IMG/VR virus record: IMGVR_UViG_3300009285_001996
DNA: 64,000 bases
Origin: a virus
Direction: 5' to 3' (one strand)
The position numbers and the translations under genes were made by a program. Position 1 is the stretch's first letter. Each line of letters starts with the position of its first letter. Shown piece after piece: positions 3,271-41,965 of the stretch. The notes under the pieces are model-generated. The model saw only the letters and a program-made list of their open reading frames with translations, was not told where the DNA came from and made no database searches.

Positions 3271-3302
3271 GTAACGGTTCTAGTTTGTCGAACAAAAAAA
3301 AT

Positions 3303-3330
3303 TTGACAAAAACATAGAATGTGGTATAAT
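3303..3330 (+). promoter_or_regulatory. sigma70-type promoter
   Basis: TTGACA-16 bp-TATAAT with TG extended -10. Confidence 0.8.
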
Positions 3331-4185
3331 AAGGGGGTGAACCCTTGGGAAAAATTAGGAGATTGAACTATGACCAGAAAACATTTCAAGGCATTGGCCG
3401 AAGCAATCGCTACCATTAAGAATAAAACCGAACGAGAAAGGGTAGCAGTATTGATTGCTGGAGTTTGTCGAGATTCTAACCCCAATTTTAACAGTGGGGT
3501 TTTCTACAAGGCTTGTCAATTAACATGCCAACATGGGGGAATATGTCATGTGGATTAAAGTGTGGTGGTTTGGCAACGAAGAATGGGCCTGGCAACCATC
3601 TGCCGATCTTATTCCTTTTCTCTGGAAAGAAGGAGAGTTGTCCGATGGGCAGATATGGGCGCAAATTTCTGAAGATGGACCTCTACGCCCCTTAACCCCA
3701 GCATCAGGAATATGTGAATGAAAAAACCCTTTCCAGTTGACCGCTCAAAGCTAGAATCCGCTATCACCACGGCGGAAAGTAATGGAGGGCTACCTAACAT
3801 AACATTACTTTGTCAGGTAGTAGCCGAATTGTATAATGCCAATAATCCCCCAAGGGTGATTACACACTCTGTTGTCGGATTACGAATAAGGGAATGGGGC
3901 ATCTCTATTAAAACGATCAAAGGAAAGAGGGGTAGGGTAAGTGATAGCCCCACCAATAGCGATTGTAAACCCAAAGGAAACCGTCTATCCGAATCCGTCT
4001 TACAAACACTACATAGGGATGTGCCCCTTCGATTCCATCCCGTGATAGAACGTCTAAATAAGGGCAGTAGGTCGGCAGCGGTCAAGCTGAAGTGCCTAGA
4101 ATGCAGTGGGTGGCAAACTTCGGAAGTCGCCAAGTGCGTATGTCCTGACTGTCCACTTTTCTCATTTCGACCATACAAGCGAATT

Positions 4186-4254: not shown

Positions 4255-4701
4255 ATGCGTAATGAAGTAAACAATTCTGCCGACGTTATTGATTCGCGGG
4301 ATGTTATTGCGAGAATCGACGAATTGGCGAAAGAGCTACAAGAATATTACTCAAAGGAACGTGAATTTGAGGACTCCGACCTACCTTTTAACGAATGGAT
4401 AGAAGAGACTGCCGATGACGATAAGGCAATCATGCAAGAGGAGGCTATCGAATACCTAACCCTGACATCCCTAGCAGAAGAATGTGAGGGGATAGCTTCA
4501 GACTGGAGTTATGGCGAAACTCTCATTCGAGAAAGCTACTGGGAGGATTATTGTCGAGAATTAGTATCGGATATTGGAGACTTGCCAAGAGACTTTCCAT
4601 CCTATATCGTTATTGATTGGGAAGCTACCGCCGAAAATTTGCTGACAGATTACTCATCGGTTGAGTTTGACGGAGAAACCTATTATATTAGGTCGTGCTA
4701 A
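4255..4701 (+). CDS. ArdA-like acidic antirestriction protein
   Basis: very acidic; C-terminal YIVIDWEATAENLLTDYSSVEFDGETYYIR resembles ArdA C-terminal motif. Confidence 0.55.
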   Translation: MRNEVNNSADVIDSRDVIARIDELAKELQEYYSKEREFEDSDLPFNEWIEETADDDKAIMQEEAIEYLTLTSLAEECEGIASDWSYGETLIRESYWEDYCRELVSDIGDLPRDFPSYIVIDWEATAENLLTDYSSVEFDGETYYIRSC

Positions 4702-6271: not shown

Positions 6272-6878
6272 TGCCCGTTACTAAAGGCGGACTCGCTAAA
6301 GTGTTGATAATTCTAGAGCGTATGCGTTACCCTTTGAATGTCTTACCCAACCCTTGCGGTCTATAGTCTGGCAGAGTGGCGTAGTCAGCGAATTGGTGGG
6401 CGGTGGCTTGTAGTTATTGGTTTTGCATAAAATTACATTAAAATAATCAGGCGACCACCAAAAGGTAGTCTAGTACGTCCAGTGTTATTTATTCCAAAAC
6501 AATTCTATTTAATAAATTACCCAATTTAACAGTCTGAGAATATTTTCGGGAAAATTTTTATTTTGTTGATTTACCTCAAAACTGGTTTTTGGTAGTATTA
6601 AGCACGAGGGAGATGTATATAAGAAAGGAAAATCGAGAACGAAATGGTAGTGTATTAACTGTTGAGTTAGTAAAAACTAAAGGTAGTAACAAAAGAAACG
6701 AATAGTTACTATTGATTCTTATTGCTTACTAATAATCAGACTTGAGGGGGCTGGACTATGAGACATGCCCACATTCTCCATTTAGCCTAATCTATGGAGA
6801 TTCCCTACCTCGCCCCCCTTATAACTTCCCTGCTATAAAGTATTTTCAAGAAAAATGAAGGCGTGGGAAATAAAACAT

Positions 6879-6906
6879 TTGACAAAATTCTGGAATATGT
6901 TAAAAT
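6879..6906 (+). promoter_or_regulatory. sigma70-type promoter
   Basis: TTGACA-16 bp-TAAAAT. Confidence 0.65.
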
Positions 6907-7235
6907 TGGGGAATTGACCGACCGATTATCTAAACTGGGGAGTCCCCCTATCTAACAAAATTGGAGTCTGCACATGAAAGTCAGATTTTTGTGCGATTGC
7001 GAAATCGAGGTTTGTGAGTCTTACGACGAAGAAAACGATACTGGGGAGTATTCTAATGGGGTGTTTTTGACTGGCGACGAAACCGAATTCGATATTATAG
7101 ACCATCCACTAAAGTTAGATAATAAAGAAATGGTATTTGTTGATGACCCTGAGTTGGTAAACGTGCAATTCCCCAGTGGCGGAATAGCGTGTTGTGTGTC
7201 GAGAGGATGGTTTGAGGTAATAGAGGAATAATATT

Positions 7236-12175: not shown

Positions 12176-13074
12176 ACAACCCCCCACTAGGGGTAGGTAA
12201 TTTTATCAAAAATGATATTGACTTAACATAGGAACATCCCCTATAATCGGCAAAGTGAAATGCTTACCTCGGTTGATTTTTTCTAAGGGGAACCAGTAAG
12301 ATGCTAGTTAATCTACACGGAGGGATTATTGATGAACGGTTACAACAATTAGATCAAACAATAAAAACTATGAAAGTTCCAGCGTCATTAGGTGATGTCG
12401 AAATTTTACTACAAGCAAGAGAGTGTGTAAAAAACTGTAAAGGATGTGATGGGCATAAAACACTAATAATTCACGCTATAGAGATGGCGACTATCGTGCT
12501 ATACAAAGAGGTATTAGAAAAGGAAAAGTTTGAGAGAGCGATGGGCTAATTAGTTATAGGAGAAATAATATATGTTATGTTCAGAATTACGAATTGGTGA
12601 TAAAGTAGAGTTTATTTATAATAATGGGCAACACAGTGGGACTACAAGACATTTAGTTGTGGATTCGCTATATGACGACGACGATTTTGGAGGTTATGAA
12701 GAACTAGTGGCTTTAGGTGAATATCGCAGATTTAAGCCTAAATTTGTAGTTGATTTACGTTTTATTGGCGATAGATTGATAACAATAACACTTACACCAA
12801 AAGAATTAGAAATACTAAAATTAGCGATAGAGATAATGAATAATCATTGGAGTGGAAAATGATAGATAATGTAGAGTTTATAGATGTGTGGAACAAACAT
12901 AGTGGTGACACTAAAGGGGTATCTCTCGAATTAAGAATATCGGTTGAGTATGCTAAAGCTAAAGCGGAGAATCTACGCAAACTAGACTACCCTATTTGCG
13001 ATGAACTAGAAGCGGAATTTGCGGCTAGATTGCCCAATTTAACACAACCCATCTAAAAACCCCAAAAAAAACAT

Positions 13075-13102
13075 TTGACAAAATCCACAAACATGGTATA
13101 AT
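13075..13102 (+). promoter_or_regulatory. sigma70-type promoter
   Basis: TTGACA-16 bp-TATAAT with TG extended -10. Confidence 0.8.
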
Positions 13103-13143
13103 ACGGTTGGCGGGACGAAAATTACACAACAAAAAACTGGAGT

Positions 13144-14622: not shown

Positions 14623-15788
14623 TATTATAAGGGTTTTACTATGACTTGTTCAAAATGCCTCCACATATTTCATACCCTAGAGGGGGAAGAACGCGACCAC
14701 GAATGTCCGAAGTGTGAGTATTATCCAGAAGGTTGGTCTAACGATGAAGGAGTTGAAAAATTAAAACTTTCACTCTATCATTTTCCCTGCTATTTCTCCC
14801 CTACTCTTGTTGTCCGCCATCACTAAGAGCAATATCGCTATGGCTTGTCCTACGTGCGATCACACGCTACAAAACATCAACGCTAAACCACCTATCTTTT
14901 GGTGCCCGAGATGCGGAACTATTAAAGATGGTGACAGTAGCGAAGAACCAACGATTGTAAAAAGAACATTATGGTTATGTGATATCGTATTAGAACAACA
15001 AATGATGATTGGGTATATACACCCAGAAAAATTAAGAATGGCTGAGATAGCTGTGCGGGAGTGTTGTGGGAACAATATGTAGGGTAGTAAATAAACCATC
15101 TATTTAAGTTGGAGGTTAATAAATGTTAGTTAGTTATACTGGTGAAAATGAAGTGATTATTTGTGAAGTGGAAAAAGAAGAGTCAACAGTAAAGGAATAT
15201 TTTACGAATGGTGGTCGTAACACCGAGGATTATGATAGAGAACTACATATTAACGTCGTTCAAATAACCGCAGAAATTAAAATTTGGGATTATGAATAAG
15301 GAGAACTAAAATGGTCGTAGGAACCTGTAGTAATTGTGGTGGTCAAGTTGAACGGGATATGGAGGGAAATTTACATTGTAGGAGATGTGGGGCAACTAAA
15401 TCAATTTTGCCAGTTATCCCAATGCCGCCACCACCTAAATATCCGTTTCCCAAAAACCCATACCCAATAGAAAGAATAAAGTATCATTGGTAATATGGAT
15501 GTATCTCATGAGCGAAATAGCTGATGATATGATTGGGGGTTTTAGTTGTAGTTGGTGCGGAATTTACTTTGAGGAATCACATGGGTATCCCGTAATTTGC
15601 AGGGGGTGTTATAGAGATTGGCAGAAGGAAAACAATAGTAAAGGAAAGAGGGAATTATTAAGAATGTGCGGCGTGCAACTGGCAAATGAAAAAGAGTTGT
15701 GTGAGGGAGAAAAATGGATATGGAAAGGGTGAGCGGATATTGAGGAGTTGTGGTAAAGGATAAAGTCAGCGGTTTCTACCCTGTCAGA

Positions 15789-32881: not shown

Positions 32882-34685
32882 AGGGGCGGAATATAAGTTT
32901 TGACTAATTTGCAGGAGAATTATTATGTTAGTAAGTTATGTGCGTAATAAAAAGCGCGAGAAGATTGGGGTGGTGGTTGCAATTTATCGAGATCAGGTTG
33001 GGTGGTCACTTTGTCGTACTAAATTAGATAGGTTTGATAAAGATTTAGGGCTGAGGATTGCATATGGGCGAGCAATAACGGGTAGTGCTACAAAGCCGCC
33101 AACGACAGTAATGAAGACGTATAACGATATGATGGATAGGTCTAAAGCATATTACAAGTTTTAGGAGTTTGACCATGAAAACCTATTATAAAATTGTTAG
33201 TAAAGATTTGAAGTCTATTGTGTCTATTAATTTGGACACTCCAGATGAGTATGTCGTACAATATTGTGTCAATAGATTTGTTGAGCCAAAACTAAAAGGC
33301 ACAAGTCTATTTGTTTTTGACACATTAAAAAATGTAAAACGTTTTTTTAGCCCCCCTTGGGTACATGGAGAACGGTATATTATTTATGAGGCTGAAGTAA
33401 AAAATCCGAAGCAAATAGGTTTATTTAGTTCCTATTGTAATTGGGTATATTTAGCAGAATTATTAGAACTTAAAAGAAGTAAAAAGAAGTGGTCACATAA
33501 AACCAGCGTTCCACCAACAGGAACGGTATTTTGTAGTTCAGTAAAGTTACTTAAAAAAGTGGATATATAATTATGAAGGGTAATCTAACTAATACTCTGA
33601 ATGGTTTAGCGTTTATAATTGGTGTGGTGTTAATGATATTTAAAGTGGGAGGCATAGAAAGTATATCGTGGTGGCTTATCTCTGCTCTAATTTTTGGACC
33701 TTGGGTATTGGTATTTTTGAGTATAGTATTTTTGACGGGGGCGGCGGCGGTTGGGTCAGTTGTAGATGCGAACCCCGAATCCCATTTGGATAGGGGAGAG
33801 ATCAAAATTACGGTTGGTGGCAAAGATGTAAGTTTAGAGGAATTGTTGGAAATGTTAAATAACAAGTAAACGTTGGAGTTACTGCAATGGAAGTTCTAGG
33901 ATTTGTGTTGGCTATATTTTTGATTGTATTGTACATTCACAAAGTCGATCAATGCGACCGTCTAAAAGTAAAGTTAGATCGTAATGAGTTTAGTTATTTT
34001 GTGGTTCGTTTAGTCGAGAGTTTTAGTAAACCGAAAATTATCGGTAATTTACAATGGAGGTTAGAAATGTTATCAGGTAAAATCAAGTTAACTTGGGTTA
34101 AGAGCGTTAGTGCTAATGTCGTTGGGCAACCATTGGTTGTTGGCGTAGATGGTGTAGAGGTAACTATGCCAGCCGAAGTGTTGGCTCCTGAAGTGGAGTC
34201 CTATGAGTTTTTCGCAAAGGAGGGCGCAGCCGTAGAAGTTTCTCTCTGTGCGGATAATGGCTCATTTAAATCAGACCCCGTAACGCTATCATTTGTAGTT
34301 CCCGTACTTGCCCCACCCCAACCCCAAACCAATCTGGTTTATGAGGTTGTGGAGGTTGTAGAGACACCAGACGATCCAGTTCCACCAGCGGAGCCAGTAT
34401 AATATGGAACCATTATCTAATGTAGTCTACGACTGTGGGTTATTTGTAGATGAACCAAAACCAAAAGGAATGGCTAAAATAGGAATGAAGATGAGGGGGG
34501 TGGCTAATCTGTCGGTGACTTCTAAATATGATGTTGAGTTGGGCGACGGATTATCGGTTAAACAAGTGGGTGATTCTATAGCTAACTCTCCTGCTGAACA
34601 GATTGCGCTCTTAGTAGAATATCTTAAAGTTAAAAAGGGGGTTGATATTGTTAATTTATTTGTTGTGTATTAGAAAAGTAAAGTT

Positions 34686-34757
34686 GATGTAATGTATAGT
34701 AATGTTACGTTTAGTCGAGTATTGTTTAGTGGAGTGAAGTATATCTGAAAAAGATGT
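34686..34757 (+). ncRNA. pentamer-repeat guide-like unit A
   Basis: gatgt aatgt atagt aatgt tacgt ttagt cgagt attgt ttagt ggagt gaagt + hairpin ATATCT-GAAAA-AGATGT + T-rich tail. Confidence 0.85.
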
Positions 34758-34782
34758 TTTGTTTTATGAAAGAAGGTGGTGT

Positions 34783-35097
34783 ATGGACGATATAAGGTAT
34801 ATAAGAATTGTCGGCGAGGGGGTTGACATTATCTCCAAGGTAGAGTATGATGACCATCAACAGGCGTGGCGGTTGACAAAACCGATGGGTATAATAGTTA
34901 CGGAACAGGGTGTTGGGTTTATGAAATATCCAATGTTTGGTTCTATGCTAATGGTTAGTGGTGGCGATTCAATTTTGATTAAAGATGAGCATATTTTGTG
35001 GATAGAGACTCCTACTACAGAGTTAGAAAATGCTTACAGGGTAAACGTCTTACATGGTATTAGCGTTCCTACTCAGGGATTAGTATTACCAAATTAA
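34783..35097 (+). CDS. small phage protein (possible Sm-like beta fold)
   Basis: ATG after GAAGGTGG; resembles small conserved myophage proteins (..KPMGI..GFMKY..EHILWIETPTTELENAY). Confidence 0.55.
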   Translation: MDDIRYIRIVGEGVDIISKVEYDDHQQAWRLTKPMGIIVTEQGVGFMKYPMFGSMLMVSGGDSILIKDEHILWIETPTTELENAYRVNVLHGISVPTQGLVLPN

Positions 35098-36860: not shown

Positions 36861-37625
36861 ATGTGCAAAATTCTAAAATCACTCATTTGCTTAACTTTAA
36901 TATTATATAGTTCTATTTTATTTGCACAAAATCAAGTTATCAAAAATATACGGAATTTAACTGTAGGAATTACTGTTGAAACGCCAATGGGGGGAGCAAA
37001 TGGTTCTGGTATCCTGTTTTCCTGTAACAATCAAACTTATGTATTAACTGCGGGACACGTAGTTTCTGTTGCTAGAATTATTGGGTTTAAGCGAACTAAA
37101 ACAGAAAGCCAACAATTAGTAGCCTATGCGCCCATTTTTATAGAGCAAATAGTTGATAGCGGTAAAACTAAAAAACTAAGAAAATTTCCAGCAACTATAG
37201 TGCGTAATGGACTAATACACGATAATCTTGATGTAGCCGTTTTAATGCTTATAGACGTAGATCAAGAAAACAATCTTAGTTTTGATTTCAATGAACCAGA
37301 CATAGGGACAAACACTTTGGGATGTGGGCAGTTGTTAGATAGTGAGTTATTAACTACGGATGGTATTGTTAGTGAAATATATACGACAACTGATTATGGT
37401 TTTCATCATCAGGCTACAAATAATGTTCAAGGTGGGTTTTCTGGTGGTGGAATCTTTAATGCCGATAACGGTAAATGTATAGGTATAATTACTCAAAAAA
37501 CACTTGTAGGATGTGCTTTTGTACCATCTGGTGAAATTCTTAAATGGCTACAAGATAATGAAATAAATTGGTTAGTTGATAATTCTGAACCGTTGGACAA
37601 TGTTTTAACATTAGAATTGGATTAG
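36861..37625 (+). CDS. secreted trypsin-like serine protease
   Basis: signal peptide; LTAGHV, DVAVL, GGFSGGG. Confidence 0.85.
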   Translation: MCKILKSLICLTLILYSSILFAQNQVIKNIRNLTVGITVETPMGGANGSGILFSCNNQTYVLTAGHVVSVARIIGFKRTKTESQQLVAYAPIFIEQIVDSGKTKKLRKFPATIVRNGLIHDNLDVAVLMLIDVDQENNLSFDFNEPDIGTNTLGCGQLLDSELLTTDGIVSEIYTTTDYGFHHQATNNVQGGFSGGGIFNADNGKCIGIITQKTLVGCAFVPSGEILKWLQDNEINWLVDNSEPLDNVLTLELD

Positions 37626-40008: not shown

Positions 40009-40085
40009 TTAGTTACGTCAAGTGATGTATAGCGATGTGGCGTGGAGTATTGTATAGTGAAGTTAAGAATAACCGAAAAGGTTGT
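40009..40085 (+). ncRNA. pentamer-repeat guide-like unit B
   Basis: ttagt tacgt caagt gatgt atagc gatgt ggcgt ggagt attgt atagt gaagt taaga + ATAACC-GAAAA-GGTTGT. Confidence 0.85.
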
Positions 40086-40087
40086 AT

Positions 40088-40264
40088 ATGATAAATGATT
40101 TTGTTATCCTATTTCAAGATTTAGAATCAAATATTATTGAATATGAGTGTAGTGTGTGTGGTGAAGTATTTATTGCAGATTACGCATTAGGAATAAATTT
40201 GGATATAAGTTCTGGCGATAGAGCAAGATGTCCCAATTGTGATAGTGTAGATAATTCATTTTAG
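40088..40264 (+). CDS. small zinc-ribbon protein
   Basis: CSVC ... CPNC; flanked by units B and C. Confidence 0.65.
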   Translation: MINDFVILFQDLESNIIEYECSVCGEVFIADYALGINLDISSGDRARCPNCDSVDNSF

Positions 40265-40322
40265 TGATGTAGAGCGATGTGATGCAGAGTGCTGTTGTGT
40301 TGAGAACATCTGAAAAAGATGT
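40261..40322 (+). ncRNA. pentamer-repeat guide-like unit C
   Basis: ttagt gatgt agagc gatgt gatgc agagt gctgt tgtgt tgaga + ACATCT-GAAAA-AGATGT + T run. Confidence 0.85.
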
Positions 40323-40369: not shown

Positions 40370-40900
40370 ATGAAGAAAATTGTGAGTGTAACTATTAAGG
40401 GAGTTGCTCCACTTTTACTAAATCGCCCATTAACGGACGAGGAAAGTGGTGGTGGTAGCAAAAAGAAAACCGAAATCTTAGCACCAGAACAGAAAGCTAA
40501 CTCCGTCAATTATTTTGATGAGGAAGTTGGTTGTTATGTCCCCAATTCAATGATTAAGGCATCACTGCGAGACGCTAGTAAGAATTTTAAGCGTGGTCGT
40601 GGTAATTATGCCAAGACCCTAAAGGCTAAGTTATTCGTGACTCCAGAAAAGATTCCTCTAAACAAACAAACTTTTGATCTAATCGACCGTCGAGCGGCTA
40701 AGCTACCAACTAACGGAGCAATGATTACAGCTTCTCGCCCAAGATATGAAAATTGGGAGTTGAGTTTTAAGGTTGAATATGATGATACAACTATTGATGA
40801 CAAAACTTTGAGGGAAATTTTTGATGAGGCTGGTAGTTCAACATGTATCGGGAGTTATAGACCGGAGTTTGGAAGGTTTGAAGTTGTTAAGTTTGAGTAA
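40370..40900 (+). CDS. stand-alone Cas7/RAMP-like RNA-binding protein
   Basis: AAGGAG RBS; N-terminal VTIKGVAPLL strand, YVPNSMIKASLRDA (cf. RAMP IPGSSxKGxxR), C-terminal G-loop IGSYRPEFGRFEV. Confidence 0.75.
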   Translation: MKKIVSVTIKGVAPLLLNRPLTDEESGGGSKKKTEILAPEQKANSVNYFDEEVGCYVPNSMIKASLRDASKNFKRGRGNYAKTLKAKLFVTPEKIPLNKQTFDLIDRRAAKLPTNGAMITASRPRYENWELSFKVEYDDTTIDDKTLREIFDEAGSSTCIGSYRPEFGRFEVVKFE

Positions 40901-40917
40901 TATATTAATTTTACCAT

Positions 40918-40985
40918 AATGTCAAGTTAAGTTAAGTGCGGTGTAGTACAGTCTCAGTATAGTCTAGTATACCACAATATGGTGT
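40918..40985 (+). ncRNA. pentamer-repeat guide-like unit D
   Basis: aatgt caagt taagt taagt gcggt gtagt acagt ctcagt atagt ctagt + ATACCA-CAATA-TGGTGT. Confidence 0.8.
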
Positions 40986-41020
40986 ATGTTTTTAACAATA
41001 TAAAATATTAAATAACAATA

Positions 41021-41092
41021 AATGTACATCGAAGTCAAGTACAGTATAGTCAATTAAAGTGAAGTTTAGTCTAGAATAACCGAAAGGGTTGT
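41021..41092 (+). ncRNA. pentamer-repeat guide-like unit E
   Basis: aatgt acatc gaagt caagt acagt atagt caatt aaagt gaagt ttagt ctaga + ATAACC-GAAAG-GGTTGT. Confidence 0.8.
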
Positions 41093-41094
41093 AT

Positions 41095-41490
41095 GTGTCT
41101 GATTTAATCACTCCATCAATCTTAGATATTAAAGCTGATATAGAGTATTGGTGGAAACAATTTACTATTAAGTTAGAGGTTCCGTTATCTGAATTATTCC
41201 CAGAACCAGAAAAGGGGTGGGTAAAACACATTTGGAAACATGGGTCCGCTGATTTATGCGTCTTTCATAGTAATAAGTTAATATGTATTATCGAGGCGCA
41301 TGGACACCACCATTTTAGTAATAAAAAACAAATAATGAACGATAAAAGAAAAGCTAAATTATGTCAAATTAACAATATTGGATGTTTACAAGTCGCAAAC
41401 AGTGTAAGAGATACAATAGCAAGGAGAAAATGGAGAAGGTTATTGGGTAAATATATATGGAACGATTGTGTGAAGTGTAGTACAGTCTAG
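41095..41490 (+). CDS. Vsr/DUF559-like PD-(D/E)XK-fold nuclease
   Basis: ADLCVF...IIEAHGHHHF...NDKRKAKLCQINNIGCLQV pattern. Confidence 0.65.
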   Translation: MSDLITPSILDIKADIEYWWKQFTIKLEVPLSELFPEPEKGWVKHIWKHGSADLCVFHSNKLICIIEAHGHHHFSNKKQIMNDKRKAKLCQINNIGCLQVANSVRDTIARRKWRRLLGKYIWNDCVKCSTV

Positions 41491-41543
41491 TTGTGTATAG
41501 TCGATTACTGTGCTGTGATGTGTAGAATAGCGGAAAATGCTGT
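41467..41543 (+). ncRNA. pentamer-repeat guide-like unit F
   Basis: tgtgt gaagt gtagt acagt ctagt tgtgt atagt cgatt actgt gctgt gatgt gtaga + ATAGCG-GAAAA-TGCTGT. Confidence 0.85.
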
Positions 41544-41578: not shown

Positions 41579-41965
41579 ATGGCAAGTTTTAACAAGGTTA
41601 TTTTGATGGGTAATGCCACTCGTGATGTAGAACTACGGTATATCCCAAGCGGTAAAGCCGTGGCTGACTTATCACTGGCGGTTAATAATCGTCGTAAGAG
41701 TGGTGACGAATGGGTAGAAGACGTAGTGTTTGTAGATTGTACAGTTTGGGGTCGCACTGCGGAAGTTGCTGCGGAATATGTAAAAAAGGGTAAGCCTGTT
41801 TTAGTAGAAGGCAAACTTATTCAAGATAGCTGGGAAACACCAGATGGACAGCGACGTACAAAGTTAAAGGTTGTTGTTGATTCTATGCAATTATTGGGCG
41901 GTAAGCCTCAAGATAACGAAGGCGATACACCAGCAGTTGGTGATGACGACGATTTACCAATCTAG
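41579..41965 (+). CDS. ssb: single-stranded DNA-binding protein
   Basis: [21 protein letters not shown]...WGRTAE...KG.PVLVEG; acidic tail DDDDLPI. Confidence 0.96.

Follow-up and report, generated by a model that had tools for sequence, protein, structure and literature searches.

A detached guide-like unit beside a mismatched gene in a phage genome with a Vipr homologue and a predicted nuclease

The window analysed here, 64,000 nucleotides of IMG/VR virus record IMGVR_UViG_3300009285_001996, looks like a large phage. Its gene at 40370, described as Cas7-like in a first-pass annotation made from the sequence alone, is by sequence comparison a Vipr homologue: the product matches the Vipr of phage SUSP1 (chain 36pp_D) with E 8e-12, and a profile search gave E 2e-24 with the G-loop aligned. 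The same Vipr is also encoded on a 171-kb contig, and the runs containing it are labelled as groundwater or soil metagenomes. VIPR guides (vrRNAs) are built from GGY/NN pentamers followed by a conserved tail, and they pair with the target while skipping one base that falls on the wobble position; YNNNG-type repeats are mentioned as well (10.64898/2026.04.26.720920). With a detector for period-5 G[CT] runs, applied to the 64 kb, we found six tracts, all on the plus strand, at 34689 (A), 40012 (B), 40264 (C), 40921 (D), 41024 (E) and 41470 (F). Units A, B, C, E and F have a common tail, in which the stems have changed and yet remain paired, while the hairpin of D differs. The features of the two regions are collected in the table.

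Table. Guide-like units, genes and near-self sites in the window.
Feature	Position	Strand	Description
Unit A repeat tract	34684..34740	+	One degenerate and ten in-register (W)GT-NN pentamers, closing AGT; predicted guide region
Unit A tail	34741..34765	+	6-bp hairpin, GAAAA loop, T-rich run
Gene preceded by unit A	34783..35097	+	Phage gene, 104 aa; PHROG 527, E 0.0015
Near-self site of guide A	34786-34817	+	Codons 2-12 of the 34783 gene, 17/22; skipped base is the third codon position
Unit B	40011..40085	+	vrRNA-like, same tail family
Zinc-ribbon-like gene	40088..40264	+	58 aa; near-self site of guide B at 40112-40143 (16/22)
Unit C	40263..40322	+	8 repeats; 9/16 to the vipr gene it precedes, no match
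vipr gene	40370..40900	+	176 aa; G-loop GSYRP, with Ser at the position of SUSP1 Vipr D177
Unit D	40920..40990	+	7 repeats, then 3 more after a register shift; hairpin of another type; no adjacent match
Unit E	41023..41092	+	12/22 to the gene it precedes, no match
Accessory (vap) gene	41095..41490	+	Predicted Vsr/DUF559-like restriction-endonuclease fold; likely GTG start
Unit F	41469..41543	+	vrRNA-like
ssb gene	41579..41965	+	Near-self site of guide F at 41735-41766 (17/22)

Elsewhere in the window, three copies of a TTGACA...TATAAT-like element (3287-3335, 6863-6911 and 13059-13107) are probably strong early promoters. At 37106-37160, in the 36861 gene, a contig from run X11 has 10 differences in 55 bases, possibly representing a recombined or variant strain at low depth.

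Sequence reading and repeat scans agree that unit A contains ten in-register (A/T/C)GT-NN repeats starting at 34688 and then AGT. The repeats follow the (W)GT variant and not the GGY consensus itself. Their 6-bp hairpin occupies 34741-34757. Read along the unit, the NN pairs are GA AA AT AA TA TT CG AT TT GG GA; these letters had been given correctly in the first-pass annotation, but the first GA comes from a degenerate, out-of-register repeat, and the clean units run from AA to GA. That annotation had also described A as a guide-like unit of the window's RAMP system, detached from the Cas7-like gene by 5.6 kb, with a hairpin and tail nearly identical to those of unit C. All of this agrees with our results: the distance to the vipr gene is 5.6 kb, the two hairpins are identical at 16 of 17 positions, and TTGTTTT follows both. 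A promoter scan for unit A found none above chance.

The proposal that unit A matches the gene it precedes was confirmed, at 17/22 over codons 2-12 when the guide is read with a one-base skip, and all five mismatches are indeed single-base. Among the 127,936 sites of the window this is the sole one at which the 11-unit guide scores at least 17/22. The ten clean units score 15/20 against the same gene, which is attained at 3 of 127,942 sites. When the comparison was made in frame with the next gene, shuffled guides equalled the score in 1/3000 and 0/3000 cases for 11 units and in 6/3000 and 10/3000 for 10 units; when any frame or strand in 34501-34960 was allowed, they did so in 2 and 4 of 1500 for 11 units. 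The mismatches are scattered, and the longest run of matching units is two. As in a homing element, the near-self site of guide A lies in the gene beside the insertion point, and the phage's own allele differs from the guide.

It might be supposed that A, though a true vrRNA, is directed at something unrelated and resembles the next gene by accident. If only the ten clean units are scored and every frame on either strand in the vicinity is allowed, 37 and 21 of 1500 shuffles (1.4-2.5%) are as good, a score of 17/22 somewhere in 64 kb is not rare, and the skip-2 control attains 17 once. Such an accident is nevertheless highly improbable, as three of the six units match the gene right after them, in its codon frame, at a level that about 0.3% of shuffles or fewer attain, and similar cases occur in other, nuclease-bearing loci. 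The two further units are B and F. Guide B matches the zinc-ribbon gene it precedes at 16/22 (4/3000 shuffles as good), and guide F matches the ssb gene it precedes at 17/22, its best site in the window (0/3000 shuffles as good). The near-self sites of A, B and F are all wobble-aligned and in codon frame. For C, D and E we found no match to the next gene. The idea that guides are dispersed beside the loci they police thus fits A, B and F and does not fit C, D and E; with three of six units following the rule, guides are not generally dispersed beside their targets. Over 33 bases (40021-40053 and 40263-40295) B and C show 79% similarity, and C may be a shortened duplicate of B. Against the last codons of the preceding zinc-ribbon gene, unit C scores 11/16 (p about 0.015).

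We compared guide A with 28 distant homologues of the 34783 gene (20-39% identity); two homologues of this gene match Pfam DUF6561. Three of the four residue-changing mismatches, at residues 3, 5 and 7, are comparable across these homologues. The guide's residue is present in 12, 19 and 12 of the 28, respectively, and the residue of the phage's own gene in 6, 2 and 5. The first-pass annotation would have been contradicted by homologues that never carry the decoded residues; at these three positions they do carry them. At residues 9-12 the guide keeps the register of the own gene and fits 1, 0, 0 and 0 of the 28 homologues, which means that a real target would have to lie in a much closer relative than any found. 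On balance, we read unit A as probably a detached vrRNA that is directed against the 34783 allele of a close relative and is kept beside the phage's own, mismatched allele.

Searches for that allele covered several sources. The exact guide A pattern had 0 hits in IMG/VR, and a relaxed pattern had 39, none homologous to the 34783 gene. A tblastn search of GenBank phages gave no match. The sole close protein is 99% identical and is the same at the guide A site, no site of at least 80% for guide A was found in a homologue, and we found no empty site lacking unit A.

Unit A might instead be a relic, copied from the adjacent gene when the guide was acquired and left without a current target once guide or gene had drifted; an earlier allele of the phage itself, or recombination at the locus, would have been its source. 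The lack of a non-self target in the exact and relaxed pattern searches fits this explanation, as does the unusual register at residues 9-12, which guide A shares with its own gene and which occurs in none of the 28 homologues. A decaying element, however, would hardly be expected to keep an intact scaffold and hairpin (10/10 in-register GT), and guide F fits non-self ssb genes better than its own. A relic is therefore unlikely, although this reading overlaps with the targeting of a relative's allele if the phage's own allele changed to escape the guide.

The position of the near-self site bears on another alternative, in which Vipr loaded with unit A would sit, by partial pairing, on the start of the phage's own gene and damp transcription of that gene or those downstream, with no cutting. 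The site extends over codons 2-12, and an 11/12 sigma-70-like promoter match (34823-34851) starts 6 bases beyond its end, inside the 34783 gene. The tail-proximal units are the perfectly matched ones, 2 in A, 4 in B and 5 in F. However, no more than two consecutive units of A match, and the mismatches lean toward residues of the homologues, which self-regulation does not predict. In related loci (L151 and L193) the match frequently falls where the upstream gene ends. Published VIPR work contains no self hits of at least 80% (10.64898/2026.04.26.720920), and tolerance of mismatches is not described in the accessible part of the structure paper (10.64898/2026.04.26.720927). Autoregulation consequently seems quite unlikely.

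The targeting of a relative's allele can be followed further with guide F. It matches the ssb genes of 8 viral contigs at 20/22, against 17/22 for self, and a two-base mismatch at an invariant Gly persists in all of the best non-self ssb genes. The 20/22 form also occurs in 2 of 151 Planctomycetota genomes; at least one of these matches sits in a chromosomal-type ssb, between two genes that from their sequences encode ribosomal-protein-like products. Guide F could thus aim at the ssb of a rival phage or of a host. The latter possibility recalls phage flagellin and TldR (10.1101/2023.11.30.569447), where a guide silences the host homologue and the phage supplies its own copy next door. The Planctomycetota matches speak for such replacement and repression, but 149 of the 151 genomes lack the exact form of F, and no cellular homologue was seen for the gene that follows A, a member of the phage family PHROG 527. 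This explanation is plausible for F and not for A, and may hold for F alone; for unit A we regard it as very improbable.

To see how partial self matches look elsewhere, we turn to an all-against-all scan of 356 guides from 190 loci. In one clade of related contigs, guides match non-self loci at 18-20/20. The guide at L058:7312 matches its own adjacent gene at 16/20 and the corresponding site in L033 and L036 at 20/20. This case serves as a calibration, in that a partial self match is the expected look of a guide targeting a relative's allele. In L151 a guide lies between a Cpn10 gene and the nuclease gene, and L008 has the same gene order without the guide. The L151 guide matches the Cpn10 allele of L008 and L211 at 18/22 and its own at 17/22 (0/2000 shuffles), a one-base difference, so that the pair may be taken as a weak sign of the direction of targeting. 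The exact pattern of the L186 guide had no match in our search.

The association between guide and adjacent gene is not a general property of VIPR. In 80 viral loci, 9 of 167 guides matched the downstream gene at p<0.05, and in 80 metagenome loci 6 of 126 did so; there is no excess of adjacency across all VIPR loci. In loci with a nuclease gene, adjacent non-VIPR genes match in 5/21 tests, compared with 5/200 for genes farther away (Fisher 9e-4). When all loci were used and a DUF559-type class was added, a step taken after the L193 result had been seen, nuclease-bearing loci outside the window gave 5/25 for adjacent genes and 2/210 for non-adjacent ones (Fisher 1.7e-4), where four loci account for the five hits (L008 for two, L151, L156 and L193 for one each), L008 and L151 are related phages, and several of the "adjacent genes" are spurious frames over vrRNAs. 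The loci outside this class gave 8/212 and 29/1046 (p 0.38). L185, which has a DUF559 gene, was misclassed among them as nuclease-free; it also matches its upstream gene in antisense at 17/20. The matched adjacent genes vary from locus to locus and include Cpn10, SMC-like, zinc-ribbon and, in L186, RNase H-like genes. What is directly established for the window and these loci is the anatomy of the units, the code match, the homology to Vipr, the prediction of a nuclease fold and the recurrence of the pattern.

Several other loci deserve mention. L213-L219, from bacterial assemblies belonging to several phyla, are compact loci of vipr, guide(s) and nuclease gene with the same accessory family, and their guides have no match in the flanking genes; possibly these are defence versions of a host type. 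In compact vipr-guide-nuclease loci from named bacterial assemblies we found no notable match to the flanks. L116 has a detached GGY-NN unit at 4427-4510 (G005:C1 about 15430-15510), 12 kb from vipr, with unmatched flanks, so a detached unit need not lie beside a target. A large phage (L208, 6887-8324, on the contig of L001) carries a vipr-guide-nuclease block downstream of ssb, and its guide has no ssb match. The guide right after vipr in L008 (8505-8580) matches its own vipr in antisense at 19/30 and failed the wobble-aligned test; a guide of L120 matches its own vipr in antisense at 15/20.

The family of the accessory gene at 41095 adjoins vipr in at least 39 of the loci collected. The product and its homologues (8 aligned) have invariant D, E, H, D and R residues, and the product has a weak DUF2726 match. 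Its structural model (pLDDT 84.5) has restriction-endonuclease folds as the top Foldseek matches; the match to Vsr has TM 0.59 and E 0.07, and a single Foldseek hit reached E<=0.001. On the basis of this modelling, the product is a predicted nuclease.

The Vipr itself provides a link to the scaffold of unit A. According to the accessible portion of the structure paper, D177 of SUSP1 Vipr contacts the first G of GGY (10.64898/2026.04.26.720927). We surveyed the equivalent residue in 83 distinct loci among L001-L224, with duplicates collapsed, taking those that had 8 or more scaffold repeats and a G-loop that could be read. Where 45% or more of the scaffold is G-first, the residue is Asp (73/73 distinct loci); where less than 10% is, it is Ser (4, the window included) or Thr (6) in 10/10 loci, these loci not being independent of one another. 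A quick tree of 106 Vipr proteins places the six Thr loci in one clade and requires three changes for the Ser rows, at least two of them forced by well-supported branches, so the residue appears to have switched in several independent events. As the G-loop residue tracks the first base of the scaffold, the WGT scaffold of unit A is tied to this Vipr.

How unit A might act can be outlined as follows; its expression, loading, real target, sparing of self and outcome are what we infer. Unit A would be transcribed along with its operon and would load the phage's Ser-type Vipr in trans. The complex would bind the allele of a co-infecting relative at the start of the gene, and would either block it or cut it with the predicted Vsr-like nuclease. 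The phage's own copy would be spared by the five scattered mismatches; since no more than two consecutive units match, the own allele would be expected to escape. Linkage of guide and resistant allele would be maintained, since recombination that parted them would produce a self-targeting genome. Should the nuclease cut, the break would be repaired from the genome with the guide, and both the allele and the guide would be copied into the rival, resulting in local marker exclusion.

This last version amounts to RNA-programmed free-standing homing, in which a Vipr filament recruits the Vsr-like nuclease and guide units are copied in during repair. We put it forward tentatively, as a doubtful but possible extension of the targeting of a relative's allele. 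If it is true, each 100-base guide unit would be a non-autonomous homing element that cuts the relative's allele of the neighbouring gene, one nuclease would drive many loci, and the VIPR cassette would enter new phage neighbourhoods by way of an edge guide directed against the flanking gene. Phage VIPRs have so far been described as silencers. A phage VIPR with a predicted nuclease, and with guides beside the phage's own mismatched copies of their targets, would be a programmable free-standing homing endonuclease, which would give a reason for the dispersal of guides through the genome. Two open points would become testable, namely the number of mismatches that protects self and the origin of new guides. 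If the system only silences, our observations are a tidy extension of known inter-phage targeting. The link between G-loop residue and scaffold base gives a simple means of assigning detached guides to their Vipr.

Among known systems, the closest is the type II VIPR of Escherichia phage SUSP1. VIPR was published in 2026, and detached guides and the targeting of related phages have already been described. The window shares with it a Vipr homologue, pentamers with variable NN, a conserved 3' tail, one accessory gene and, probably, the one-base skip on the wobble position and guides pointing at related phages. It differs in that the scaffold is WGT and not GGY, the tail is a short hairpin in which no pseudoknot was seen, and single units are interspersed between genes. 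The phage also carries a predicted nuclease in vap, whereas published VIPR nucleases are confined to the defence-island types III and V (10.64898/2026.04.26.720920). The matches of the window's guides to their own adjacent genes, 73-77%, fall under the 80% threshold for self hits used in the same study.

Solo vrRNAs, as described in the available part of 10.64898/2026.10.15.759431, occur in F5 satellites and in VIPR-null phages of the SUSP1 family and are defined by the absence of a Vipr from the contig or from the surrounding 20 kb. Unit A resembles them in lying away from the vipr operon with its tail kept, and like them it would match self less well than non-self. It falls outside their definition, as vipr is 5.6 kb away and solo vrRNAs borrow a foreign Vipr. 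Their targets, as far as that part of the report lists them, are vipr, vrRNAs, satellites and REP elements, and not a homologue of the neighbouring gene as proposed for A. WGT/NN motifs beside a Vipr-like protein are also known from non-canonical VIPR arrays (10.64898/2026.10.21.760802); the accessible text of that paper discusses no targets, no adjacency and no residue associated with the change of scaffold. The term "homing" is absent from the VIPR literature that we found, and a literature search, with most subscription journals outside its reach, gave no paper on guide-target adjacency or the D177 switch.

The free-standing homing endonucleases of T-even phages (seg and mob) have targets up to hundreds of bases from the insertion, according to the available part of PMC2988022. 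Like them, unit A is an intergenic element with a proposed target in a related phage's copy of the adjacent gene, and local marker exclusion would be expected. Whereas seg and mob use one protein per site, the specificity of unit A would come from a 100-base RNA together with a shared complex of Vipr and nuclease. The TldR system associated with phage flagellin is similar as a phage RNA-guided system that targets the counterpart of an adjacent phage gene. In the part of that work available to us, TldR is a TnpB-derived protein with a contiguous guide and a host promoter as target; for the gene after A, no host homologue was seen. VIPR, solo guides and WGT repeats are thus already published, and the window adds three cases within a single genome of a guide-like unit beside a gene that it matches, their association with a predicted nuclease gene, and a rule that relates the G-loop residue to the scaffold.
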